A DNA stretch of 64,000 bases from an uncultured Planctomycetia bacterium (GTDB lineage: Bacteria > Omnitrophota > Gorgyraeia > 2-01-FULL-45-10): positions 64,672-128,671 of the forward strand of contig CAYGRZ010000001.1 of NCBI GenBank assembly GCA_964352425.1. The letters run 5' to 3'. Position numbers and translations under genes: made by a program. Under the pieces are notes generated by a model. The model saw only the letters and a list, made by a program, of their open reading frames with translations. It was not told where the DNA came from and searched no databases. This document shows positions 5,593 to 45,880 of this stretch, one piece after another (the first letter of the stretch is position 1; each line of letters opens with the position of its first letter).

Positions 5593-5666
5593 GCGAGCGT
5601 AGTTCAATGGTAGAATACTAGCTTCCCAAGCTAGATACGGGGGTTCGATTCCCCTCGCTCGCTCCA
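5593..5666 (+). tRNA. tRNA-Gly (anticodon CCC)
   Basis: Cloverleaf folds by hand: acceptor GCGAGCG/CGCTCGC, D-stem GTTC/GAAT, anticodon stem CTAGC/GCTAG with loop TTCCCAA, T-arm GGGGG-TTCGATT-CCCCT, 3' CCA encoded. Near-identical in pattern to E. coli glyU. Confidence 0.9.
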
Positions 5667-34621: not shown

Positions 34622-35593
34622 ATGGACCGCAAAAAGCTGGAAGCCGTAAAAAGGGCAAACGCCCTCCTTGGAAACTGCCTCAAAAGCTGCTCGATATGCC
34701 CGCGTACGTGCGGTGTCGACCGCACGGCAGGTAAGTCTGGCTACTGCCGCGCGGCCTTTAACTCCGTCGTGTACAGTTATTCGCCCCACCACGGCGAAGA
34801 GCCGCCGATATCAGGAACCAGGGGCTCGGGCACGATATTCTTCTCCCACTGCAATATGAAATGCGCCTATTGCCAGAATTACGACTTCAGCCAGCTCAAT
34901 AAGGGTGAGGAAGTGACAACCGACAAGCTCGCGGCGATGATGCTCTCGCTGCAGAAGAGAGGATGTCATAATATCAATCTCGTCACGCCGACGCATTACG
35001 TTCCGCAGATACTTGCCTCTCTCGAGATGGCGCTTGAGGGCGGGCTCGAAATACCCATTGTCTATAATACCAGCGGCTATGACCTGGTCGAGACTATCAG
35101 GGCCCTCGATGGGGTCGTCGATATTTACCTGCCCGACATGAGATACTCGGACGATACAATGGCAGGCAAGTACTCCGATGCGGTGCGGTATGTCGAGCAT
35201 AACCGGGCCTGTGTGCGCGAGATGCAGGCCCAGGTGGGGGATCTGGTAATGGACGGTACAGGCATAGCCAAGAGGGGGATCATCATCAGGCTCCTGGCGC
35301 TGCCGGGCGGTATTTCGGGCACGGAGCGGTCGCTGCGCTATATTCGTGAGCATGTCAGCCCTGGCGCTTATTTAAGCATCATGAGCCAGTACTATCCGAC
35401 GTTCAAGGCGCACCAGTACACGGAGATATCCCGCAGCATCTCCGTCGGAGAGTATAAGAATGTAGTTGACGCGGCGCATCTTTTGAGCTTAAATAAAGGT
35501 TGGATACAGGAAGCCCCCGAAGAATTTGAACCGAGATTTTTCGGCACTAACATCAAACCCACAATAGACCGCGATGGCAAAGAAGATCAGTAA
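34622..35593 (+). CDS. radical-SAM protein (PflX/activase-like)
   Basis: CNMKCAYCQN (CX3CX2C); the internal ATG at 34622 is used because the upstream extension of ORF 34307 is Arg-rich shadow. Confidence 0.8.
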   Translation: MDRKKLEAVKRANALLGNCLKSCSICPRTCGVDRTAGKSGYCRAAFNSVVYSYSPHHGEEPPISGTRGSGTIFFSHCNMKCAYCQNYDFSQLNKGEEVTTDKLAAMMLSLQKRGCHNINLVTPTHYVPQILASLEMALEGGLEIPIVYNTSGYDLVETIRALDGVVDIYLPDMRYSDDTMAGKYSDAVRYVEHNRACVREMQAQVGDLVMDGTGIAKRGIIIRLLALPGGISGTERSLRYIREHVSPGAYLSIMSQYYPTFKAHQYTEISRSISVGEYKNVVDAAHLLSLNKGWIQEAPEEFEPRFFGTNIKPTIDRDGKEDQ

Positions 35594-36287
35594 AAAAAGC
35601 TCATACGAAAAACATATAGAGGCCATATCGAAGGTCTCGCAATCGATCACGTCCAACCTCTACCTCGAAGATATCCTGAAGCTCATCGTCACCGTTACCG
35701 CGGAGATTATGGATTCAAAGATATGCTCTCTCATGCTTATAGAGCCAAAGACCGGCAGGCTCGTCCTCAAGGCAACCCAGTCGATGAGCGAAGAGTACAA
35801 TAAGAAGCCGACGCTCAAGATAGGCCAGGGCATAGCCGGTAAGGTAGCTCTCGAAAATAAGCCGCTCGCCGTCTTTGACATATCGGAAGAGCCGGAGTAT
35901 GTATCCAAGGATATCGCGACCAAGGTGGGCCTGCAGTCGCTTCTATCTGTGCCGCTCTCGGTCAAGGGTACGGTGATCGGCGTCCTGAATAATTATACCT
36001 CGCACCCGCATCGTTTTACCCAGTATGAGGTCGATATCATGACGACGGTGGCCAGCCAGGCCGCCATCGTCATCGAGAACGCCGAGCTTATGTTAAAAAC
36101 CAAGGTCATCCAGGATGAGCTTGAATCGCGGAAAGTCGTCGAGAGGGCCAAGGGCATCATGATGCGGCAGCAGGGCATGACCGAAGAAGAGGCCTTCCGG
36201 AAGATCCAGAAGCAGAGCATGGATATGAGAAAGACTATGCGCGAGATAGCAGAGGCGATAATACTTATCGAGAACATGAAGAAGTAG
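35574..36287 (+). CDS. GAF-ANTAR RNA-binding antitermination regulator
   Basis: GAF region, then an ANTAR helix bundle (RKVVERAKGIMMRQQGMTEEEAFRKIQKQSMDMRKTMREIAEAI). Confidence 0.8.
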   Translation: MAKKISKKSSYEKHIEAISKVSQSITSNLYLEDILKLIVTVTAEIMDSKICSLMLIEPKTGRLVLKATQSMSEEYNKKPTLKIGQGIAGKVALENKPLAVFDISEEPEYVSKDIATKVGLQSLLSVPLSVKGTVIGVLNNYTSHPHRFTQYEVDIMTTVASQAAIVIENAELMLKTKVIQDELESRKVVERAKGIMMRQQGMTEEEAFRKIQKQSMDMRKTMREIAEAIILIENMKK

Positions 36288-36531: not shown

Positions 36532-38205
36532 ATGAAGCTCAGGTTGGCAATAGCACAGATCAATTGCACGGTAGGCGACCTTGAAGGCAACTGCAGGAAG
36601 GTTGCAGGATGCCTCGAGAGGGCCGGCGAGTTCGGTGTCGATTTGATCGCATTCCCGGAACTGGCGGTAACAGGCTACCCACCGGAGGACCTTCTGCTGA
36701 AACCGAAGTTCATCGCGGATAACATCGACGCGCTGAGGGAGACGGCCAAGTCTGTCGGTGACATGATAGCGGTCATAGGGTTCGTGAACCGCGTAGGCAA
36801 GGATATATTCAACGCCGCAGCGATCATTCACAAAGGCGAGGTAAAGGCGGTCTACCACAAGATGCTATTGCCGAACTACGGCGTCTTTGACGAGAACCGG
36901 TATTTCAAGCCAGGTTCAGCGCCAGGCGTGTTTAAGGCGGGCGGCATGGCATTCGGCGTCAATATATGCGAGGACATATGGCATAAGGCCGGACCGATAA
37001 AGGCTCAGGCTGCTGCCGGCGCAAGTCTTATCCTGAACATCAACTCTTCGCCATATCACGCCGGCAAAATGAAAGAGAGGGAAGACCTGATCAAGCGCGA
37101 GGCTAAATCAAACAATGTCTTTATAGCGTACGCGAACCTCGTAGGTGGCCAGGATGAGCTCGTATTCGACGGCCATAGCATCATCGTTGATCCGGCAGGA
37201 AAGATCATATGCCGCGGCCCGGGCTTCAAGGAAGACCTCCTCATGGTTGACCTCGATCTCCCGGCCCTCAAGACAAAACGTATAAAGAAAGCTGTCGAGA
37301 TCGCAAAGAAGTTTGAACCGAGACAGAAGAGGCCGCCTCTTACAAAGAATGAGGTAAAACCGCTCGATCCCGTCGCGGAGGTATATGAGGCACTCCTCCT
37401 CGGGCTTAAAGATTATGTAACAAAGAACGGGTTCTCAAAAGTCATTATCGGGATATCCGGCGGCATAGATTCTTCGCTCGTCGCCGTGCTTGCGGCCGAC
37501 GCGCTCGGCAAAGAAAATGTCACCGGCGTATTCCTGCCGACGCGGTATTCGTCGGAAGAGTCGGGACGCGACGCAAGCGCTCTTGCGTCCAACCTTGGGA
37601 TCAAGTATATAGAGATGTCTGTCGACCAGATCTACAAGTTGTACCTGATGGCGTTCGAGACCCAGTTCGTCGGGCTCGGCAGGGATATCACCGAGGAGAA
37701 TATACAGGCGCGCATACGCGGCAACATGCTGATGGCATTTTCCAACAAGTTTGGGTGGCTCGTCCTGACAACAGGCAATAAGTCCGAGATGAGCACCGGC
37801 TACGCGACGCTGTATGGCGACATGGCAGGGGGGCTGGCGGTCATAAAGGACGTGCCAAAGACGCTCGTCTACAAGCTTGCGAAATACAGAAATACGCTCG
37901 GGAAGGTGATCCCGGATGCCGTCTTTACAAAAGAACCCACGGCAGAGCTCAGGCCCGACCAGAAAGACAGGGATACGCTTCCCGCCTATGATGTGCTCGA
38001 CCCGATCATTAAAGCGTACGTCGAGGAGGATAAAAGCCCCGGCGAGATCGCTTCGGCCGGCTTTGACAGGGAGATTGTTGCGCGGGTCATTCGGATGGTG
38101 GATTCGAGCGAGTATAAGCGCAGGCAATCGCCGCCGGGCATCAAGATCACGCCCAAGGCGTTCGGCAAGGACAGGAGGATGCCGATAACGAACAGGTATA
38201 AATAG
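36532..38205 (+). CDS. nadE: glutamine-dependent NAD+ synthetase (nitrilase domain + NAD synthetase domain)
   Basis: N-terminal CN-hydrolase region and C-terminal SGGIDSSLVAVLA PP-loop. Confidence 0.9.
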   Translation: MKLRLAIAQINCTVGDLEGNCRKVAGCLERAGEFGVDLIAFPELAVTGYPPEDLLLKPKFIADNIDALRETAKSVGDMIAVIGFVNRVGKDIFNAAAIIHKGEVKAVYHKMLLPNYGVFDENRYFKPGSAPGVFKAGGMAFGVNICEDIWHKAGPIKAQAAAGASLILNINSSPYHAGKMKEREDLIKREAKSNNVFIAYANLVGGQDELVFDGHSIIVDPAGKIICRGPGFKEDLLMVDLDLPALKTKRIKKAVEIAKKFEPRQKRPPLTKNEVKPLDPVAEVYEALLLGLKDYVTKNGFSKVIIGISGGIDSSLVAVLAADALGKENVTGVFLPTRYSSEESGRDASALASNLGIKYIEMSVDQIYKLYLMAFETQFVGLGRDITEENIQARIRGNMLMAFSNKFGWLVLTTGNKSEMSTGYATLYGDMAGGLAVIKDVPKTLVYKLAKYRNTLGKVIPDAVFTKEPTAELRPDQKDRDTLPAYDVLDPIIKAYVEEDKSPGEIASAGFDREIVARVIRMVDSSEYKRRQSPPGIKITPKAFGKDRRMPITNRYK

Positions 38206-38250
38206 TAGTACCGTATCTCAACGCTGAGATAGGATCCCAAAGAGCAAAGA

Positions 38251-38289
38251 TGCCCTTTTGGCGCATAGAAACGCGCAAAAGGGCTTTTT
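38251..38289 (+). terminator. rho-independent terminator of nadE
   Basis: GCCCTTTTGGCGC-ataga-aacGCGCAAAAGGGC followed by TTTTTAT. Confidence 0.6.
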
Positions 38290-38447
38290 ATTTGAGCACA
38301 TGACTTATGGAGCCGAAGGCGACATAAGTCATGTGTGCGAAAAAAATCCGCCGACTAGTCCTCCGAAGCCAAGCCTGACCAAAGACATTCACAGGCGAAG
38401 GAGGAAGCCAATCTTGACAAGAACCATGCAACGGCGAAGGCGGATGA
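38283..38447 (+). repeat. leader repeat R1, copy a (palindrome CACATGACTTATG-N13-CATAAGTCATGTG plus a conserved 3' block), upstream of the sigma-factor gene
   Basis: ~80% identical to 43503-43657, with compensatory changes in the palindrome arms. Confidence 0.7.
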
Positions 38448-38995
38448 AGAAGGTGGTGGTCACGATGTACAAGCGATTCGATGAGATGATGAAGAAGCTG
38501 TCACCGACACTGCGGGGCATAGCGCACCGCATGAACGGCCATTTCACGTTCTTCACGGATGATGACCTCTACCAGGAAGCGCTCGCGCATCTGTGGGCCA
38601 GTTTCGGGAGAGGCGCCCTGAGGGACAAGACGGATAGCTACATTCTCCAAGGGTGCTATTTCTACCTGAAGAACTACCTGCGCACCTCTCTCGACAAGGC
38701 AAAACTCGTGAGCCTGAGCGAGCTCATCGACGGTCAGGACGTTTCTATCGAGGAGTCGCTCGCATCGAAGGATACGAATGCGCGCGACGATTTAGATGCA
38801 GGACTTCTTGCGGAAAACATCGTATTCAAGAGTCTGGACGCGCGGGAGAGGCTGGTCCTGCGGTACTCGACGGAAGGCCTTACGATCAGAGAGATAGGTA
38901 AGCGCCTCGGCGTTTCCCACGTCATGGTGGTCAAGATAAGGTCGAAGATACGGAAAAAGTGCGATGCATTAAGACGGGGTGGGCATCATGGTTAG
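38444..38995 (+). CDS. RNA polymerase sigma factor (small sigma-70 family, ECF/SigH-like); start 38444 or 38465
   Basis: Region-2-like DDDLYQEALAHLWASFGR and region-4 HTH LTIREIGKRLGVSHVMVVKIRSKIRKK; the 5' part of ORF 38258 lies on the nadE terminator and is rejected. Confidence 0.65.
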   Translation: MKKVVVTMYKRFDEMMKKLSPTLRGIAHRMNGHFTFFTDDDLYQEALAHLWASFGRGALRDKTDSYILQGCYFYLKNYLRTSLDKAKLVSLSELIDGQDVSIEESLASKDTNARDDLDAGLLAENIVFKSLDARERLVLRYSTEGLTIREIGKRLGVSHVMVVKIRSKIRKKCDALRRGGHHG

Positions 38996-41576
38996 TACTG
39001 GTCTTAAGGGGCTCGACAAGGTCATCACTGGGCTGCAGATGGGCGACAATGTCGTCTGGCAGATGGACGCCATTGAAGATTATCACGAATTCGTGAAGCC
39101 CTTCGTAAAAAAAGCTGTCGATGAAAAGCGAAGGCTCGTCTATATCCGGTTCGCGAACCACCCGCCCATCCTCGAGAACAACAAGAACATCACCGTCTAC
39201 TCACTTGACGCCACAGCCGGCTTTGAGACATTCTCATCGCAGCTGAACGGCATCATCAGGAAGGAGGGGGAGGGAGTCTTTTACGTCTTCGACTGCCTGT
39301 CAGACCTTCTCTCTGCCTGGTCAAACGACCTGATGATAGGCAATTTCTTCAAGATCACCTGCCCGTATCTTTTCGAGCTCAATACGATCGCCTATTTCGC
39401 CCTCCTGCGCAACAGCCATTCATTCAAGACCATCGCCCGCATCAGGGACACGACCCAGCTTCTCATAGACGTCTATCATTACGGCGGGAACTATTACATC
39501 CACCCCCTCAAGGTGTGGAACAGATATTCACCGACCATGTTCCTGCCGCACGTGAAGAAGGACGACAAATTTCTTGCCATCGCCAACAGCGTAGATACCG
39601 CGAGGCTCTTCTCCCACATATTCAAGAAGGGGGCCAAGTCGATCAAGCGCAAGCTGGATTACTGGGACCGACTCTTTATGACCGCCGAGGACCTGGCAGC
39701 AGGTAAGGGCTGCCCGAATGAAAAGATACAGCAGATGGTCGACGTGCTGTCAAGGATAGTCATCGCACGGGATGAAAAGATGCTGAAGCTGGCCAAAGAG
39801 TACATCACGCTTGAGGATTTCCTTAATATCAAATCGAGGATGGTCGGAACGGGCTTTATCGGCGGCAAATCCGTAGGCATGCTGATCGCCAGGAGCATAC
39901 TCCTGAGAGATAAGGCGCTGGAGGCAGAGAAGTTCTTTGAGCCGCACGATTCATTTTATGTCGGCTCGGACGTCTTCTATACCTATATCGTCGAGAACGG
40001 CTGGTGGAAGGCGCGCATGGAGCAGCGGACAAAAGAAGGGTACTTTGAGGTAGCGCTCACCCTCAAAGACAAGCTCCTGACAGGCGTATTCCCCGAGGAG
40101 ATCAAAGAGCAGCTCCAGCAGATGATCGAGTATTTCGGCCAGTCGCCGATCATTGTGCGCTCATCGAGCCTCCTGGAGGACAGCTACGGGAACGCATTTG
40201 CAGGTAAATACGAGAGCATCTTCCTGGCGAATCAGGGGACTCCCGATGAGCGCTACGCGAAGTTCGTTGACGCTGTCAGGCGGATCTATGCCTCTACGAT
40301 GAACGAGGACGCGCTCGCGTACCGCCTGCAGCGCGGCCTCGACCAGATGGACGAGCAGATGGCGCTTCTGGTCCAACGCGTATCAGGCGCATACCACACG
40401 GACTATTTCTTCCCGGACGTCGCCGGCGTAGGCATATCCTACAACGCCTTCGTATGGAAGAGTACGATGGACCCGAAAGCCGGGATGCTGCGCCTTGTCC
40501 TGGGCCTCGGCACGAGGGCTGTTAACCGCGTTGAGGGCGATTATCCGCGCATAGTTGCCCTGGACGACCCGCTCCTCAAAGCGCATGCCGGCATTAAGGA
40601 TACCGCACGCTACTCCCAGCACGATGTGGATATGATCAACATCAAAGAGAATTCCTTCCAGACTATGTCGCTTAGGGAGCTTCTCATGAAAAAGGTCGAT
40701 ATAAATCTGGAGCTTATGGCCATAAAGGACCATCAGGCCACAGAGAAGCTGCGCGAGATGGGCATGGACGAGGAATCATGGATCATCACCTTCGATGAGC
40801 TCGTCTCAAAGACCGCATTCGCAAAGACGATGCAAAACATCCTGCACGCCCTGGAAACGGCGTACGGATACCCGATCGACATAGAGTTCACGGTAAATTT
40901 CAGGAAGGACGGGTCGTACCAGATAAACCTCCTGCAGTGCAGGCCGATGCAGACCAAGGGACTGGGGCACAAGGTAACCATCCCGCGGGGCATACCGAGC
41001 GAGAATATCCTGTTCAGCTCTTCGGGAAATTTCCTTGGCGGGAATATATCGCAGTCGATCGACAGGATCATCTATGTCGATCCGAAAGCCTATTGCGCCC
41101 TCGCGTCCCAGTCGGAAAAATACGATATCGCGCGTCTGGTCGGCGTCCTTAACGGGCAGGCAGGGCCCAGGGAAAAGATGTCGGTCATGCTTCTGGGGCC
41201 AGGCAGATGGGGTACGACCACGCCATCGCTCGGCGTTCCGGTCTCGTTCGCGGAGATAAACAACATCTCGATCCTGGGAGAGATGGCCTTCACCAGCGAG
41301 AATGTCTCGCCGGAGATATCGTACGGCACTCACTTCTTCCAGGACCTTGTGGAAACGGGGATCTTCTACATAGCGCTCTTCCCGGACAACCGCGGGGCGC
41401 AGGTAAACAAGAAGTTCTTCGCCTCGATGCCTAAGGGCCTGAAGAAACACGTTCCTCAATACAGCAAATACGATGACGTCGTCAAGGTCATCGACGTTCG
41501 CGAGCGCGGCCTCAAGATAGTTGCCGATATAATCTCCCAGAAAGTCGTATGCTACTTCCGTCAGGAAAAGAAATAG
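38979..41576 (+). CDS. degenerate KaiC/RecA-like N-terminal domain fused to a PEP-synthase/PPDK_N-type ATP-grasp (pyruvate-phosphate-dikinase nucleotide-binding) domain
   Basis: GLKGLDKVITGLQMGDNVV resembles a KaiC/RadA start but no GxxGxGKT follows; IIVRSSSLLEDSYGNAFAGKYESIF matches the PPDK_N signature. Confidence 0.75.
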   Translation: MGIMVSTGLKGLDKVITGLQMGDNVVWQMDAIEDYHEFVKPFVKKAVDEKRRLVYIRFANHPPILENNKNITVYSLDATAGFETFSSQLNGIIRKEGEGVFYVFDCLSDLLSAWSNDLMIGNFFKITCPYLFELNTIAYFALLRNSHSFKTIARIRDTTQLLIDVYHYGGNYYIHPLKVWNRYSPTMFLPHVKKDDKFLAIANSVDTARLFSHIFKKGAKSIKRKLDYWDRLFMTAEDLAAGKGCPNEKIQQMVDVLSRIVIARDEKMLKLAKEYITLEDFLNIKSRMVGTGFIGGKSVGMLIARSILLRDKALEAEKFFEPHDSFYVGSDVFYTYIVENGWWKARMEQRTKEGYFEVALTLKDKLLTGVFPEEIKEQLQQMIEYFGQSPIIVRSSSLLEDSYGNAFAGKYESIFLANQGTPDERYAKFVDAVRRIYASTMNEDALAYRLQRGLDQMDEQMALLVQRVSGAYHTDYFFPDVAGVGISYNAFVWKSTMDPKAGMLRLVLGLGTRAVNRVEGDYPRIVALDDPLLKAHAGIKDTARYSQHDVDMINIKENSFQTMSLRELLMKKVDINLELMAIKDHQATEKLREMGMDEESWIITFDELVSKTAFAKTMQNILHALETAYGYPIDIEFTVNFRKDGSYQINLLQCRPMQTKGLGHKVTIPRGIPSENILFSSSGNFLGGNISQSIDRIIYVDPKAYCALASQSEKYDIARLVGVLNGQAGPREKMSVMLLGPGRWGTTTPSLGVPVSFAEINNISILGEMAFTSENVSPEISYGTHFFQDLVETGIFYIALFPDNRGAQVNKKFFASMPKGLKKHVPQYSKYDDVVKVIDVRERGLKIVADIISQKVVCYFRQEKK

Positions 41577-41577
41577 C

Positions 41578-41700
41578 GGTTACCAAAACGAGCCCGGATT
41601 TACTTGTAGATATGTAAGTAGCTTGCTTTAAACACATTGAAGTGTGCAGCACAAAGGCGTTCTCAAGAGAGAGCGCTTTTCTATTTAGACGCAGGCGTCT
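41578..41700 (+). repeat. nitrogen-leader repeat, copy c (upstream of amt)
   Basis: Shares ggttaccaa..tttacttgta..tgtaag..cacattgNagtg..gagcgcttttYtattt with 43364-43520. Confidence 0.6.
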
Positions 41701-41758
41701 TTTGGCCCATGGAGGGGAAGAAAGGCGTCTTTTTATTGTTTAATACGGAGGAACAGCT

Positions 41759-43363: not shown

Positions 43364-43520
43364 GGTTACCAAGCGAGGCTCCTTTTTACTTGTATAGTTG
43401 TAAGACCGGTTTTTAGGCACATTGTAGTGCATAAGTAGGCAAAGACGTTTATTTGAACATAGGCGTTCAGTTTGGTCAATGAGTATGACCAAAATGAGCG
43501 CTTTTTTATTTGAGCACATA
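43364..43520 (+). repeat. nitrogen-leader repeat, copy d (upstream of glnA; contains GCAC-attgta-GTGC and a TTGGTCA/TGACCAA hairpin)
   Basis: Aligns with 41578-41700; merges 3' into repeat R1 copy b. Confidence 0.6.
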
Positions 43521-43657
43521 ATTTATGGAGCGATAGCGACATAAATTATAAGTGCGAAAATAATCCGCCGACTAGTCCTCCGAAGCTTCGCAGAGTCTAT
43601 GAGTAGAAGCGAAGGCGGAAGCCAATCTTGACCAGAAACATACAACGGCGAAGGCGG
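43503..43657 (+). repeat. leader repeat R1, copy b (palindrome CACATAATTTATG-N11-CATAAATTATAAGTG) upstream of glnA
   Basis: Direct repeat of 38283-38447. Confidence 0.7.
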
Positions 43658-43687
43658 ATATCAACCATAGCCATAAAGGAGGGCACC

Positions 43688-45880
43688 ATGTCTGTCAGGC
43701 AAGATGCATTGTTCAGGATCAATGGCAACAAGGTCGACGCGATCGAGGAGATAAAGAAGGTTTCCTCGTATTACGGAGAGAATACTTTCAACCTATCGAC
43801 GATGAAGAAGCATATCTCCGAGGCGACATTCAACGCTTTCAAGCGCTGGATGTCGGAAGGCGCGATCATCTCGCTCGAAGAGGCCAATGAAATAGCCAAT
43901 GCCATGAAGGAGTGGGCGATGGCCAAGGGTGCGACTTATTACACGCACTGGTTCCAGCCCATGACCGGCCTCACCGCAGAAAAGCACGACAGCTTCATCT
44001 CTATCGTGGAGCACGGCAAGGTCATCGAAAAGTTTTCCGGCTCCAAGCTTATCCAGGGCGAGCCGGACGCATCGAGCTTCCCTTCAGGCGGGATACGCGC
44101 CACGTTCGAAGCGCGCGGCTATACCGCATGGGACCCCTCGAGCCCGGCGTTCATCATCGAATCGAAGCTCGGCAAGACGCTCTGCATCCCTACGATATTC
44201 ATATCATATAACGGAGAGGCCCTGGACAAGAAGCTCCCATTGCTGCGATCAGACAATGCCCTGAACAAAGCGGCGATAAACCTGCTGAATCTCTTTGGTC
44301 ACAAGGACGTGAAGAAGGTCTTCTCGACATGCGGGCCGGAGCAGGAGTATTTCCTGATCGATAAAAACTACTACAATCTGCGGCAGGACCTAATCATGAC
44401 GGGCCGCACGCTTGTCGGCGCGCCATCCCCGAAAGGACAACAGCTCGAAGACCAATATTTCGGCACGATCAAGGAACGCGTGATAAATTACATGTTCGAG
44501 GTCGCTGAAGAGGCATACAGGCTCGGCATTCCCTTAATGACCAGACACAACGAGGTTGCGCCGCACCAGTACGAATTCGCTCCGATATTCGAGGAGTCGA
44601 ATATTGCAGCCGACCATAACCAGTTACTCATGGAGATCATGAAGAAGGTCGCCTTGAGACACGGGCGCGTCTGCCTGCTGCACGAGAAGCCGTTCGCAGG
44701 GATTAACGGCAGCGGTAAGCACCTGAACTGGTCCCTTGCCGATGACAAGGGCAACAACCTGCTTAATCCCGGCGAGACGCCGGAGGATAACCTGCAGTTC
44801 CTCACGGTGCTTGTGGCGGTATTGCGGGCTGTGTACGTGCACGCAGATCTTCTGCGTGCCAGCGTCGCGCTGGCCGGCAACGAGCACCGGCTTGGCGCAA
44901 ATGAAGCTCCACCTGCCATCATCAGCGTCTTCCTTGGCGACCAGCTCACGTCAATCCTTGACATGATAGAGAAGGGCGTAAAGACGAAGGTCTCGAAGCA
45001 CGACATTGTCGATCTCGGCATTGCGACGTTACCGCAATTCAATAAGGATGCGACCGACCGCAACCGCACGTCGCCGTTCGCGTTCACCGGCGCAAAGTTC
45101 GAGTTCCGTGCAGTCGGCTCATCGCAGAACATATCGACGCCGATAGCGGTGGTGAACACGATCATCGCGGAGTCGCTCGACTACGTAGCCGACAGGATAA
45201 AGAAGGCAGCCGCAGGCAAGGATTTTAATACCGCGGTCCTGAAGACGATAGCCGAGCTCATTAAAGAGACGAAGGCGATCCGGTTCGAGGGCAATAACTA
45301 TGCAGAAGAGTGGCTGAAAGAAGCGAAGAAGAGGAAGCTGCCCAATGTGGCATCTACGGCAGAGGCGCTCGAAGCGTTGATCGAAAAGAAGAATATCGAG
45401 CTTTTCGAAAAATACAAAGTATTCTCAAAGGAAGAGATCGTGGCGCGATACCATATCTGGATCCACATGTATAATACGATCCTCGAGATCGAGGCTAATA
45501 CGCTCAACGAAATGGTCAATGCGAGCGTCGTGCCGTTCGGCCTGGAATATGAAAAGCTCCTGGCCGAGAACCTCGCCGACCTTGTGGGGCTCAAGAAGAA
45601 TGCGAAACTGAAGGTCGAGCCCGCGGCACTCGAAGACCTGAAGAGGCACCTGGGCGATGTCGTCTCAATGATCTACTATGTCAGGCGCAATACTGCTGCT
45701 ATGGTCAAGCTTTTGGAGAAGACCAAGAGAGCCCATCATGAAGAACGCGCTGCCATATATTTCATTGAGCTGAAGCCGATCATGGAGCACATCCGCAAGC
45801 ACGTCGATGCGCTCGAATGCGTCGTATCGGACGAGCACTGGGATCTGCCGAAGTACAGGGAGATGCTCTTCATTAAGTAA
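43688..45880 (+). CDS. glnA: glutamine synthetase, type III (GlnN-like)
   Basis: ~730 aa with GS-III architecture; AAGGAGGG RBS before the ATG at 43688; the upstream part of ORF 43628 lies on the repeat. Confidence 0.85.
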   Translation: MSVRQDALFRINGNKVDAIEEIKKVSSYYGENTFNLSTMKKHISEATFNAFKRWMSEGAIISLEEANEIANAMKEWAMAKGATYYTHWFQPMTGLTAEKHDSFISIVEHGKVIEKFSGSKLIQGEPDASSFPSGGIRATFEARGYTAWDPSSPAFIIESKLGKTLCIPTIFISYNGEALDKKLPLLRSDNALNKAAINLLNLFGHKDVKKVFSTCGPEQEYFLIDKNYYNLRQDLIMTGRTLVGAPSPKGQQLEDQYFGTIKERVINYMFEVAEEAYRLGIPLMTRHNEVAPHQYEFAPIFEESNIAADHNQLLMEIMKKVALRHGRVCLLHEKPFAGINGSGKHLNWSLADDKGNNLLNPGETPEDNLQFLTVLVAVLRAVYVHADLLRASVALAGNEHRLGANEAPPAIISVFLGDQLTSILDMIEKGVKTKVSKHDIVDLGIATLPQFNKDATDRNRTSPFAFTGAKFEFRAVGSSQNISTPIAVVNTIIAESLDYVADRIKKAAAGKDFNTAVLKTIAELIKETKAIRFEGNNYAEEWLKEAKKRKLPNVASTAEALEALIEKKNIELFEKYKVFSKEEIVARYHIWIHMYNTILEIEANTLNEMVNASVVPFGLEYEKLLAENLADLVGLKKNAKLKVEPAALEDLKRHLGDVVSMIYYVRRNTAAMVKLLEKTKRAHHEERAAIYFIELKPIMEHIRKHVDALECVVSDEHWDLPKYREMLFIK

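Follow-up and report, generated by a model that had tools for sequence, protein, structure and literature searches.

What is the repeat of ~160 bp that lies upstream of both a small sigma-factor gene and the glutamine synthetase gene glnA in this Omnitrophota nitrogen cluster? A sequence-only reading of the window (the whole 64-kb stretch of DNA analysed here) had put the identity of the two copies at ~80% and proposed them as a candidate shared nitrogen-responsive control element. Alignment of the copies (A1) bore out the repeat, with a mean column identity of 82% and with true ends slightly wider than first drawn, running from within a T-tract to a terminal GGCGGAT (Table 1). The conserved 25-mer AATCCGCCGACTAGTCCTCCGAAGC is present at exactly two places in the window, as is the block GGAAGCCAATCTTGACMAGAAMCAT, and neither appears in any of 100 shuffles. 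Both copies sit in like orientation in the 5′ UTRs of nitrogen-cluster genes, ending 20 nt before the likely sigma start (copy A; ATG 38465) and 28 nt before the glnA start (copy B; ATG 43688). A covariance model (R1) of the hairpin that opens each copy, hairpin X, found only these two in the window, both inside the nitrogen cluster, with scores of 88.2 bits for copy A and 79.9 bits for copy B.

Table 1 Features of the window, with the evidence for each. A1, alignment of the two copies; A6 and A8, comparisons of the glnA leader and of the nadE-sigma spacer with orthologous loci; R1, hairpin X covariance model.
Feature	Position	Strand	Description	Evidence
GAF-ANTAR regulator gene	35574..36287	+		Pfam ANTAR 5.8e-22, GAF_2 3.5e-20
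ANTAR-like dual hexaloop and terminator, nadE-sigma spacer	38214..38289	+		Sequence reading, fold; P2 and terminator kept in L040, L001, L002 (A8)
Repeat copy A	38284..38445	+	Hairpin X and branched second domain; between nadE-sigma terminator and sigma-factor gene	A1, R1, absence from orthologous nadE-sigma spacers (A8)
Hairpin X, copy A	38284..38356	+		Fold, R1, family covariation
Domain 2, copy A	38346..38445	+	P1 = AUCCGCC/GGCGGAU (38346–38352 with 38439–38445)	MFE fold
Small sigma-factor gene, sigma-70 family (region 4)	38465..38995	+	3′ of copy A	Pfam Sigma70_r4
ANTAR-type leader before amtB-glnB	41579..41745	+		Pattern matches, fold
ANTAR-type leader of glnA	43365..43508	+		Conserved and collinear in seven Omnitrophota loci (A6), pattern matches, fold
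Repeat copy B	43502..43659	+	Architecture of copy A; between ANTAR-controlled glnA terminator and glnA ribosome-binding site	A1, R1, A6
Hairpin X, copy B	43502..43573	+		Fold, R1
Type III glutamine synthetase gene (glnA)	43688..45880	+	3′ of copy B	Pfam GSIII_N, Gln-synt_C-ter, Gln-synt_C

Hairpin X of copy A comprises an outer A/U stem, a GA/GA internal loop, GCAC/GUGC, a 9–10-bp stem, a second GA/GA loop and a GCC-GAA-GGC tip. The palindrome arms are CACATGACTTATG (38297–38309) and CATAAGTCATGTG (38323–38335) in copy A, and CACATAATTTATG (43515–43527) and CATAAATTAT-AA-GTG (43540–43554), with a 2-nt bulge, in copy B. Two base pairs are changed on both sides between the copies (G-C to A-T and C-G to T-A), matching the compensatory changes that had been described, and the hairpin folds far better than shuffled sequences (z = −7.8 for copy A and −7.7 for copy B). 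The 100-nt domain 2 is also conserved between the copies; its distal helix differs by compensated changes (GCCUG/CAGGC versus GCUUC/GAAGC). In copy A its P1 encloses CCUCC-GAA-GC...GC-GAA-GGAGG and GCC...GGC to give a predicted three-way junction. The folding of the domain exceeds that of shuffled sequences modestly in both copies (z = −2.4 for copy A and −1.7 for copy B). BLAST against ~2 Mb of related loci found no homologue of domain 2 beyond a 15-nt stem match in one locus, L106 (AUCCGCC-GAAGC..GC-GAAGGCGGAU), where the stem precedes a TonB-dependent receptor gene; judged by this relative, the three-way junction looks like an internal duplication of a simple hairpin 2.

Several simple roles were discarded. 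Hairpin X is not an intrinsic terminator because U precedes it and A follows it on either strand, and a terminator scan found no intrinsic terminator inside either copy. The element was dropped as a promoter source, a sigma-70 promoter scan having revealed no promoter shared by the copies. TTG codons at 38414 and 43628 are each in frame with the downstream gene, but N-terminal extension from them was rejected: the orthologous proteins begin at the annotated ATG, and good ribosome-binding sites precede the ATGs.

The view that the sigma gene and glnA share a nitrogen-responsive cis-regulator, whether a glutamine-sensing riboswitch-like RNA or an operator for a local regulator, is in keeping with the placement of both copies near nitrogen-cluster start codons, the compensatory changes in the hairpin and one domain 2 helix, and the modest folding excess of domain 2. 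In Rfam searches, however, neither the glnA RNA (RF01739) nor the Downstream-peptide RNA (RF01704) matched at the gathering score anywhere in the window, and no riboswitch family, these two included, matched at E ≤ 10 in the 400-nt stretches around the copies; both thresholds returned only chance-level miRNA and snoRNA matches.

Moreover, a complete alternative for nitrogen control is present. The ANTAR target motif consists of two hairpins with six-base loops, carrying A at position 1 and G at position 4, of which the second overlaps a terminator (PMC8934654). The glnA leader has a conserved promoter-like box, GTTACC-N15-TTACTTG (43365–43392), followed by P1 (GCAC-AUUGUA-GUGC, 43417–43430) and P2 (GAAC-AUAGGC-GUUC, 43455–43468), the latter overlapping a terminator, GCGUUCA...UGAGCGC (43463–43501), with its U-tract. 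A box of the same type (41579–41606) opens the amtB-glnB leader, in which P1 (ACAC-AUUGAA-GUGU, 41632–41645) and a P2-like hairpin (GCAC-AAAGGC-GUUC, 41649–41662) are accompanied by two terminators downstream (41653–41679 and 41690–41735). The stretches 43417–43508 and 41632–41679 thus show the dual-hexaloop arrangement, which is less clean at 38214–38289 in the nadE-sigma spacer. There, P1 (UAUCUC-AACGCU-GAGAUA, 38214–38231) and P2 (GAGC-AAAGAU-GCCC, 38242–38255) are followed by the terminator GCCCUUUUG..CAAAAGGGC (38252–38284) and a U-tract on which copy A begins; because P1 is less conserved, we infer only that this is an ANTAR-like leader. Some Omnitrophota relatives apparently have a single hexaloop hairpin.

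The GAF-ANTAR gene is conserved in 18 Omnitrophota glnA neighbourhoods, and its product is likely to be the antiterminator acting on the three leaders. The two A1/G4 hexaloop hairpins, the terminator overlap and the nearby ANTAR gene recall the EutV, NasR and AmiR systems (PMC8934654), from which the window system differs in its GAF sensor and its targets, amtB-glnB, type III glnA and a sigma factor. Hexaloop hairpins are absent from the repeat, and its position is 3′ of the terminator. Nitrogen control is best placed on the three separate ANTAR-type leaders and the GAF-ANTAR protein, an arrangement conserved across Omnitrophota, and not on the repeats, which start where such leaders end. The two copies occupy equivalent positions relative to an ANTAR-type terminator, each on its U-tract; this shared position and orientation may be due to selection and not to a preference for T-tracts.

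Orthologous loci indicate how the repeats came to be there. Apart from ~150 nt that are extra in the window, the glnA leader lines up collinearly with those of six orthologues (A6), the type III glutamine synthetase orthologues in Omnitrophota metagenome-assembled genomes (MAGs) being 70–89% identical. Orthologues of the sigma gene also follow nadE in four loci (L001, L002, L040 and L044), with spacers of ~6–105 nt versus 260 nt in the window (A8). BLAST of the 160-nt element against 80 glnA loci gave one partial match, confined to the hairpin, in L017, and the whole element had no match in the 48 other Omnitrophota glnA loci. As the orthologous loci keep the flanks and lack the ~150-nt block, both window copies are insertions; no target-site duplication was visible in the A6 and A8 comparisons. 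The element is thus missing from leaders that retain their ANTAR elements, which speaks against a conserved association with nitrogen-metabolism genes.

Relatives of hairpin X proved to be numerous. R1 succeeded where nhmmer with a three-sequence hairpin alignment returned nothing, with matches beyond the window in four Omnitrophota MAG loci (L004, L008, L012 and L017). Among the metagenome matches listed, a pattern scan for hairpin X hit more than 120 contigs, and R1 matched at least 155 times in at least 80 loci. In 145 distinct related copies, 96.6% of pairs are standard, a figure to be read with the caveat that an alignment fitted by R1 leans towards its own structure, and every one of the 21 pairs has double changes (504 cells in all), while slid controls pair at 18–35%. 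The palindrome is under selection for pairing, so this part of the sequence-only reading stands. G-U accounts for only ~22 of 2832 cells, a scarcity that suggests a constraint at the DNA level, symmetric between the strands. So far, the family appears to be specific to Candidatus Omnitrophota.

The hairpins are 50–70 nt long and mostly occur as inverted doublets (X–central stem–X) that occupy the gap from a stop codon to the following ribosome-binding site. The doublets are often flanked by TAA on both sides; the outer stem of X itself includes TTAAA. Their neighbours are genes of all kinds, with no nitrogen specificity: the 65 genes abutting type-1 ends (the ends that face the next host gene, see below) represent 111 Pfam families, among them PdxJ, a release factor, EF-type GTPases, PFK, GAPDH and GrpE, and ribosomal-protein, translation-factor, glycolysis and cofactor genes recur, as in L090, an rplE-rpsH-rplF operon with X elements between its genes. 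Group II intron domain V and IS200/IS605 ends were also considered, but no intron or Y1 gene was seen.

Relative to the flanking genes, one orientation is common to 30 of 33 doublets and 36 of 45 solos (copies with a single X). Of the type-1 ends, 63% have a start codon no more than 45 nt away, and ~50 of 106 copies have CTCC or CAT at −9. Such regularity raises the possibility that these are relics of a mobile element exapted as general RNA modules, namely 5′-UTR or intercistronic stabilisers, RNase processing sites or translation couplers, so that the orientation bias and the near-fixed offset from the Shine-Dalgarno sequence or start codon would betray an RNA function that benefits the host. 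The presence of elements without terminator features inside ribosomal-protein operons agrees with this, as does the CCUCC of domain 2 in the window, a possible pairing partner for the ribosome-binding sites that follow. An internal ORF dependent on host read-through transcription would account for the orientation bias just as well, however, and the near-absence of G-U pairs would be uncommon in a helix under selection as RNA. Furthermore, the window copies would not share the putative function because they are in the minority orientation. We consider this explanation unlikely for the family, although the conservation of domain 2 between the copies, together with its CCUCC, lends some plausibility to an exapted RNA-level role for that domain.

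Some doublets carry such an ORF within the central stem. In four loci (L088, L154, L155 and L090) it encodes a UPF0213/Slx1-like protein of 90–100 aa matching Pfam GIY-YIG (PF01541) above cut-off. The central stems bracketing the ORFs (CCCTTGACAT, CCCAGCACTA and CCCCCACCAC) are the central hairpins of ORF-less doublets elsewhere, and the ORF found inside elements is always GIY-YIG, in three different central-stem subfamilies. A profile search with the protein found 2588 homologues, all named ones being from Omnitrophica/Omnitrophota, and among the best 120 of these the C-terminus of 90 is a translation of the GGGTTTAATTCGC stem/X junction. The proteins (88–135 aa) match the catalytic domain only, with invariant catalytic residues Y, Y-G, R, H, E and N (alignment A7). 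Seven of eight loci reached from the protein are X-flanked and lie within operons, at yceD|rpmF, trmD|rplS, rplJ|rplL, dapF|dapA, pilM|pilN-like and two sugar-operon sites; three of them are at different sites of one genome, GCA_016935525.1. A family HMM run against six-frame ORFs found no GIY-YIG gene of the X family in the 64-kb window. This physical linkage of the X family to a GIY-YIG nuclease gene is what a mobile element would show.

Because Rfam yields no match, orthologous loci lack the element, hairpin X lies beside 111 unrelated Pfam families in both orientations, and the family is tied to GIY-YIG, a reading of the repeat as a nitrogen-responsive operator or riboswitch is not supported. 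We regard it as highly improbable; with its removal, the annotation of the locus loses a false riboswitch candidate. Instead, the window repeats are most probably paralogous, ORF-less, single-end copies of a dispersed Omnitrophota element, with the ANTAR leaders reading the nitrogen signal.

The full element, read in the direction of the host operon, begins with a stop-codon-rich end, TAAGTGAGG, followed by hairpin X (type 2) and the 5′ strand of a G+C-rich central stem; a GIY-YIG (UPF0213/Slx1-like) ORF of 90–100 aa without its own Shine-Dalgarno sequence comes next; and the central stem is then closed by its 3′ strand, after which come hairpin X in inverted form (type 1) and GCTCATTAAAGGAGG, the last supplying or abutting the ribosome-binding site of the next host gene. 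The nuclease presumably moves the element, perhaps by cleaving hairpins or cruciforms that X forms in DNA. Doublets and solos would be deletion derivatives: loss of the ORF from within the element would give the common doublets (X–central hairpin–X), and loss of one end the solos (X plus hairpin 2, ending GGGAT). The window copies would be solos of one lineage-specific subtype in which hairpin 2 has expanded to a three-way junction. Each landed on the T-tract of the intrinsic terminator closing an ANTAR-type leader, and would therefore be co-transcribed into the sigma or glnA 5′ UTR only when the GAF-ANTAR protein prevents termination. They probably have little or no regulatory role of their own.

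A broader claim is possible but tentative: that X plus GIY-YIG constitutes an undescribed class of prokaryotic mobile element, in which hairpin-ended cassettes, along with derivatives that resemble MITEs, are moved into the gaps between genes of essential operons by a minimal structure-specific nuclease of the Slx1/UPF0213 type. By bringing its own stop codons on one side and a ribosome-binding site on the other, the element would leave the host operon working, and the window pair, fixed in the ANTAR-controlled glnA and sigma 5′ UTRs, may modulate translation. We found no published description of such an element family in the open-access literature on Omnitrophota, MITE, GIY-YIG or UPF0213/YhbQ/COG2827. 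If the nuclease does move the cassettes, this would be a new bacterial transposition mechanism; it would also show what some of the uncharacterised UPF0213 proteins do and provide a compact structure-specific nuclease to study. In any case, an abundant repeat family is exposed within ribosomal and biosynthetic operons of a poorly known, mostly uncultured phylum. The repeats will confuse comparative searches for regulatory RNAs, as the window copies did, and complicate the assembly of Omnitrophota MAGs.

MITE-like elements such as Correia/NEMIS, bcr1 and RPE are short, non-coding, multi-copy and intergenic, have long inverted ends that fold into hairpins, appear to be internal-deletion derivatives of an ORF-carrying element and vary in presence among related genomes. 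X elements resemble them in being short, non-coding, multi-copy, intergenic and variably present, with hairpin-forming inverted ends in the doublets, and in having ORF-carrying versions with like ends and central stems. The partner ORF, however, encodes a GIY-YIG nuclease of ~95 aa, whose role in transposition is putative, rather than a DDE, HUH or serine transposase; to our knowledge, no prokaryotic insertion-sequence family uses a GIY-YIG enzyme. Each X end is itself a palindrome and orientation relative to host transcription is strongly biased. The window copies have one X end only and finish at GGCGGAT.

Imperfect extragenic palindromes, commonly arranged as inverted doublets with a spacer and falling into sequence subfamilies, are also the hallmark of REPs and REPINs (PMC3337134, PMC3116915), and the strand-symmetric covariation of X fits recognition of a DNA hairpin. 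X might accordingly be a family of this type moved in trans by a single-copy RAYT or IS200/IS605-type Y1 transposase, with the GIY-YIG ORF as a passenger. No Y1 transposase or RAYT was noticed among the annotated neighbour genes of X copies, though, and the X units are longer than typical REPs and so far confined to Omnitrophota. The constancy of GIY-YIG as the inner gene across three central-stem subfamilies, and the reading of the protein C-termini into the X junction, are hard to square with a passenger, making this origin quite improbable.

The seg genes of T4-like phages offer a parallel for the GIY-YIG gene: both lie between conserved genes, co-oriented, apparently reliant on host read-through and with a start codon buried in RNA structure (PMC2988022, PMC2330249). 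The seg enzymes exceed 200 aa, include a DNA-binding domain and have one specific site each (PMC2988022, PMC2330249), without hairpin ends or ORF-less derivatives. X-borne proteins, by contrast, are a bare catalytic domain without a C-terminal DNA-binding domain, and in place of one cognate site GCA_016935525.1 has at least three insertion sites, with abundant non-coding derivatives of the element besides.

By sequence, the closest solved relatives of the X-borne protein belong to the UPF0213/YhbQ/Slx1 clade (PDB 1zg2, 1ywl and 7wme; E = 2e-13), whose members are of similar size and share the conserved catalytic residues. Other Omnitrophota genes of the UPF0213 clade (L024, L124 and L209) lack X flanks, unlike the X-borne ORFs. 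The bacterial UPF0213 proteins are, as far as we know, uncharacterised, and we know of none described as part of a repeat-flanked element. Slx1 is a structure-specific nuclease, and by analogy an activity of this kind would suit the hairpin or cruciform ends of X.

The repeat described in the sequence-only reading is real. Copy A, upstream of the small sigma-factor gene, and copy B, upstream of glnA, are identical in 82% of columns (alignment A1), with boundaries slightly wider than noted, and the conserved blocks each occur exactly twice in the 64-kb window and in none of 100 shuffles. The palindrome arms are also as that reading gave them, with compensatory, two-sided changes at 2 of 13 pairs. 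This 5′ palindromic hairpin, hereafter X, is much more stable in each copy than shuffled sequence (z about −7.8). One helix of the second, branched part (domain 2) is likewise compensated between the copies. Domain 2 forms a three-way junction in the window, while a related copy preceding a TonB-dependent receptor gene (locus L106) has a simple form, AUCCGCC-GAAGC...GC-GAAGGCGGAU; the junction looks like an internal duplication of this second hairpin. From a TTG onwards, each repeat's 3′ part forms an open frame that continues into the gene that follows (LTR[TN][MI]QRRRR[MI]...), so a mechanical ORF list extends both genes upstream; this is probably coincidence, as orthologues begin at a later ATG.

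The same reading proposed a nitrogen-responsive element and an Rfam scan. At gathering scores, the whole window yielded nothing besides one tRNA, and at E ≤ 10 only chance-level miRNA and snoRNA matches appeared around either copy, with no riboswitch family at either. BLAST of the whole element against 80 fetched loci gave one partial match, of the hairpin only, in locus L017; the full 160-nt unit is therefore no conserved leader of glnA.

A conserved glnA leader of another kind does exist. A protein-guided scan with one genome per species returned 48 Candidatus Omnitrophota MAG loci with GlnA 70–89% identical, which places the window in that phylum, and a GAF-ANTAR gene is conserved in 18 Omnitrophota glnA neighbourhoods. 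Across 44 loci, comparison of the 330 nt that precede glnA revealed four parts: a box GTTACCA...TTTACTTGTA, hairpins GCAC-NNNGNN-GUGC and GAAC-ANAGNC-GUUC, and an intrinsic terminator, overlapping the second hairpin with its 5′ strand. The loops of the window's leader fit the published ANTAR dual-hexaloop signature of A1/G4 loops with the second hexaloop embedded in a terminator (PMC8934654). In a seven-locus alignment (A6) the leaders are collinear through the terminator U-tract, past which the window alone has ~150 extra nt ahead of the ribosome-binding site. In the spacer between nadE and the sigma gene, the second hairpin and terminator are kept in L040, L001 and L002 (alignment A8), and its length is about 6–105 nt in these loci and L044 versus 260 nt in the window. 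Since the orthologous leaders and spacers lack the extra nucleotides, copies A and B are insertions beginning on the U-tract of an ANTAR-type terminator.

Positions of features in the window, with gene order assigned from Pfam matches
Feature	Position	Details
tRNA gene	5593-5663	sole Rfam match in window, 71 bits
radical SAM protein gene		start of gene order
GAF-ANTAR regulator gene	35574-36287	after radical SAM protein gene
nadE	36532-38205	glutamine-dependent NAD synthetase; then copy A
nadE-sigma spacer leader	38214-38289	hexaloop hairpins AACGCU and AAAGAU, then terminator
copy A	38284-38445	before sigma-factor gene
open frame from TTG, copy A	38414-38464	in frame with sigma gene
sigma-factor gene	38465-38995	small, sigma-70 family; after copy A
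PPDK_N protein gene	38979-41576	865 aa; after sigma gene
amtB leader	41579-41745	same box and hexaloop hairpins as glnA leader, then two terminators
GTTACC box, amtB	41579-41606	ahead of ANTAR leader
amtB		after PPDK_N protein gene
P-II gene		after amtB; then copy B
glnA leader	43365-43508	loops AUUGUA and AUAGGC, A at position 1, G at position 4
GTTACC box, glnA	43365-43392	ahead of ANTAR leader
copy B	43502-43659	before glnA
open frame from TTG, copy B	43628-43687	in frame with glnA
glnA	43688-45880	type III glutamine synthetase; then large glutamate synthase

Several further features of the nitrogen cluster were observed. The box ahead of the amtB and glnA ANTAR leaders (GTTACC-N14-15-TTACTTGTA) is promoter-like, strongly conserved and recurrent across Omnitrophota, also lying upstream of glnA in L003, L004, L025, L036, L038, L046 and ~15 further loci. 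It does not resemble sigma-70 promoters, and past the terminator many of these loci have a TGnTAAAAT promoter as well; speculatively, the box might be read by the cluster's small sigma factor. A small sigma-70-family gene follows nadE in 12 Omnitrophota nitrogen-cluster loci, including L001, L002, L040 and L044; in the window, the gene for the PPDK_N (ATP-grasp/phosphotransfer) protein begins within it, and the two may be a sigma/regulator pair in nitrogen control. One Omnitrophota subgroup (L005, L008, L010, L013, L016, L042) seemingly keeps only the second hexaloop hairpin in its glnA leader, GAAC-AGAGGC-GUUC, which overlaps the terminator, and these leaders may be natural examples of the single-hexaloop ANTAR targets discussed in PMC8934654. 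Cluster order is fluid within the phylum, as glnA directly follows nadE in L007, L011 and L020, without sigma, amtB or glnB between. In L012 (9740-10000), a short ORF between a single X unit and glnA resembles a P-II C-terminal remnant (...YDVQEAMRIRTGEKG...) and may be a decayed glnB.

From the L017 match, further copies of X were found in L004, L008 and L012. Six X sequences (alignment A2) gave a consensus fold with 11 covarying pairs and a covariance model, R1, under which the window copies score 88 and 80 bits; it also finds seven copies in Omnitrophota MAG loci. A degenerate two-arm pattern matched at least 120 public metagenome contigs, and R1 had 155 matches in the first 80 metagenome loci listed. 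Pairing statistics came from 145 distinct rows, aligned by fitting to R1, so that the percentages lean upwards: standard pairs fill 96.6% of cells, against 78% when shuffled and 18–35% with partners slid; two-sided changes occur at all 21 pairs (504 cells), and G-U in ~22 of 2832 cells. Even so, the gap between these values and the controls is very wide. Wobble pairs this scarce are expected of a palindrome under DNA-level constraint on both strands and would be unusual in a helix selected only as RNA. The selection on pairing proposed earlier is thus borne out by strand-symmetric covariation, but as that of a mobile or selfish repeat.

X ends are of two types, type 1 (...TT(T/A)AA-TGAGCRC...) and type 2 (...TAAG-TGAGG...). 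The commonest layout is an inverted doublet of a type-2 X, a G+C-rich central hairpin and an inverted type-1 X, with recurring central-hairpin subfamilies such as CCCTTGACAT, CCCAGCACTA, CCCCCACCAC and CCCGCACCTT. In 30 of 33 doublets the type-2 end lies at the upstream gene's stop codon, and the following gene, which runs in the same direction, starts at the type-1 end. Of the type-2 ends, 59% overlap an in-frame stop (TGA or TAA) of the preceding ORF. A start codon lies within 45 nt of 63% of type-1 ends, with CTCC (the complement of a Shine-Dalgarno sequence) or CAT at a nearly fixed offset. Solo units consist of one type-1 X and a second hairpin closing with ..GGGAT. Most (36/45) have the polarity of the doublets and eight are inverted, several directly after a terminator T-tract; the window's two copies, L012 and L106 share the inverted orientation. 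In L141 (11186-11640), three head-to-tail ~160-bp units (X, second hairpin, 45-nt spacer) adjoin the start of an oppositely oriented polyketide-cyclase/SRPBCC gene, indicating that the solo unit can amplify in tandem.

The 65 ORFs adjoining type-1 ends matched 111 different Pfam families, none more than twice, among them PdxJ, release factor, EF-type GTPases, amino-acid kinase, phosphofructokinase, HisA/F, GAPDH, YebC, GrpE and lipid A acyltransferase. Locus L090 is a ribosomal spc operon in which X elements separate rplE, rpsH and rplF; positions 100-2600 (the same contig as L150, reversed) hold six X copies in 2.6 kb and a GIY-YIG ORF after rplE. Neither these ORFs nor the L090 operon showed a nitrogen bias, and nothing indicates that copies A and B are nitrogen sensors.

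The 95-amino acid ORF adjoining an X in L090 encodes a GIY-YIG domain protein. L088, L154 and L155 share one layout: a type-2 X, the 5′ strand of the central stem, an ATG without Shine-Dalgarno sequence, a GIY-YIG ORF (91–101 amino acids, Pfam scores above cut-off), the 3′ strand of the stem, an inverted type-1 X and the next gene's ribosome-binding site. The ORF often continues through the stem into X. The bracketing stems have the same sequences as central hairpins of ORF-less doublets in other contigs, the relationship expected of an ORF-carrying element and its deletion derivatives. Circularity was avoided by a protein-first search with a profile of four ORFs (A7), which retrieved 2588 proteins at E ≤ 1e-8; among the best 120, every source-named one is from Candidatus Omnitrophica or Omnitrophota. 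In seven of eight contigs fetched for these proteins, the GIY-YIG gene lies co-directionally inside an operon with an R1-detected X on one or both sides (yceD|rpmF, trmD|rplS, rplJ|rplL, dapF|dapA, two sugar-nucleotide operons and one type IV pilus operon). One genome accounts for three of the seven, each with a protein sequence of its own. R1 found no flanking X at the eighth locus (L209) or at two more distant GIY-YIG genes (L024, L124). Independently, 90 of the best 120 proteins have G[FL]N[SA] close to the C-terminus, a motif that arises by translating the GGGTTTAATTCGC stem/X junction. A7 shows no variation at the catalytic Tyr, Tyr-Gly, Arg, His, Glu and Asn positions. Among proteins of solved structure, the uncharacterised UPF0213 members BH0048 and EF2693 are nearest, followed at a greater distance by the structure-specific nuclease Slx1.

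Copies A and B are ORF-less, single-end members of this X/GIY-YIG family in its minority orientation, and the 64-kb window holds no GIY-YIG gene of the X-linked family. Their subtype was seen only in these two copies, which, with their 82% identity, suggests a fairly recent duplication within the window lineage. They were inserted at the T-tracts of two ANTAR-type terminators, and when antitermination occurs the 5′ UTRs of sigma and glnA include them. A secondary RNA-level effect could follow, given the compensated domain-2 helix and a domain-2 CCUCC that could pair with downstream ribosome-binding sites. We suggest that the family moves when GIY-YIG enzymes cut hairpin or cruciform DNA and the element is then copied, because the bare domain is akin to structure-specific nucleases, the ends are long palindromes with strand-symmetric covariation, and there are several sites per genome. 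With stop codons on one side and AAGGAGG on the other, the cassette could occupy an intercistronic gap and leave the operon unbroken, and a GIY-YIG start buried in structure would keep nuclease expression low, as for free-standing homing endonuclease genes of phages (PMC2988022).

Read as nitrogen regulation, the repeat finding is mistaken and unremarkable; its moderate interest lies in pointing to an undescribed element family. We found no description of X/GIY-YIG elements in the open-access literature, and rate the family as undescribed so far, though related in kind to known elements. Its ORF is placed like free-standing GIY-YIG homing endonuclease genes, but the protein differs in having neither a DNA-binding domain nor a single cognate site. 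No RAYT, the defining REPIN partner, was seen among annotated neighbours of X copies. The enzyme is not a known transposase, and no target duplication of the MITE kind could be defined. In their short, palindromic, doublet-forming and multi-copy units, X elements nevertheless resemble both MITEs and REPINs (PMC3116915, PMC3337134).
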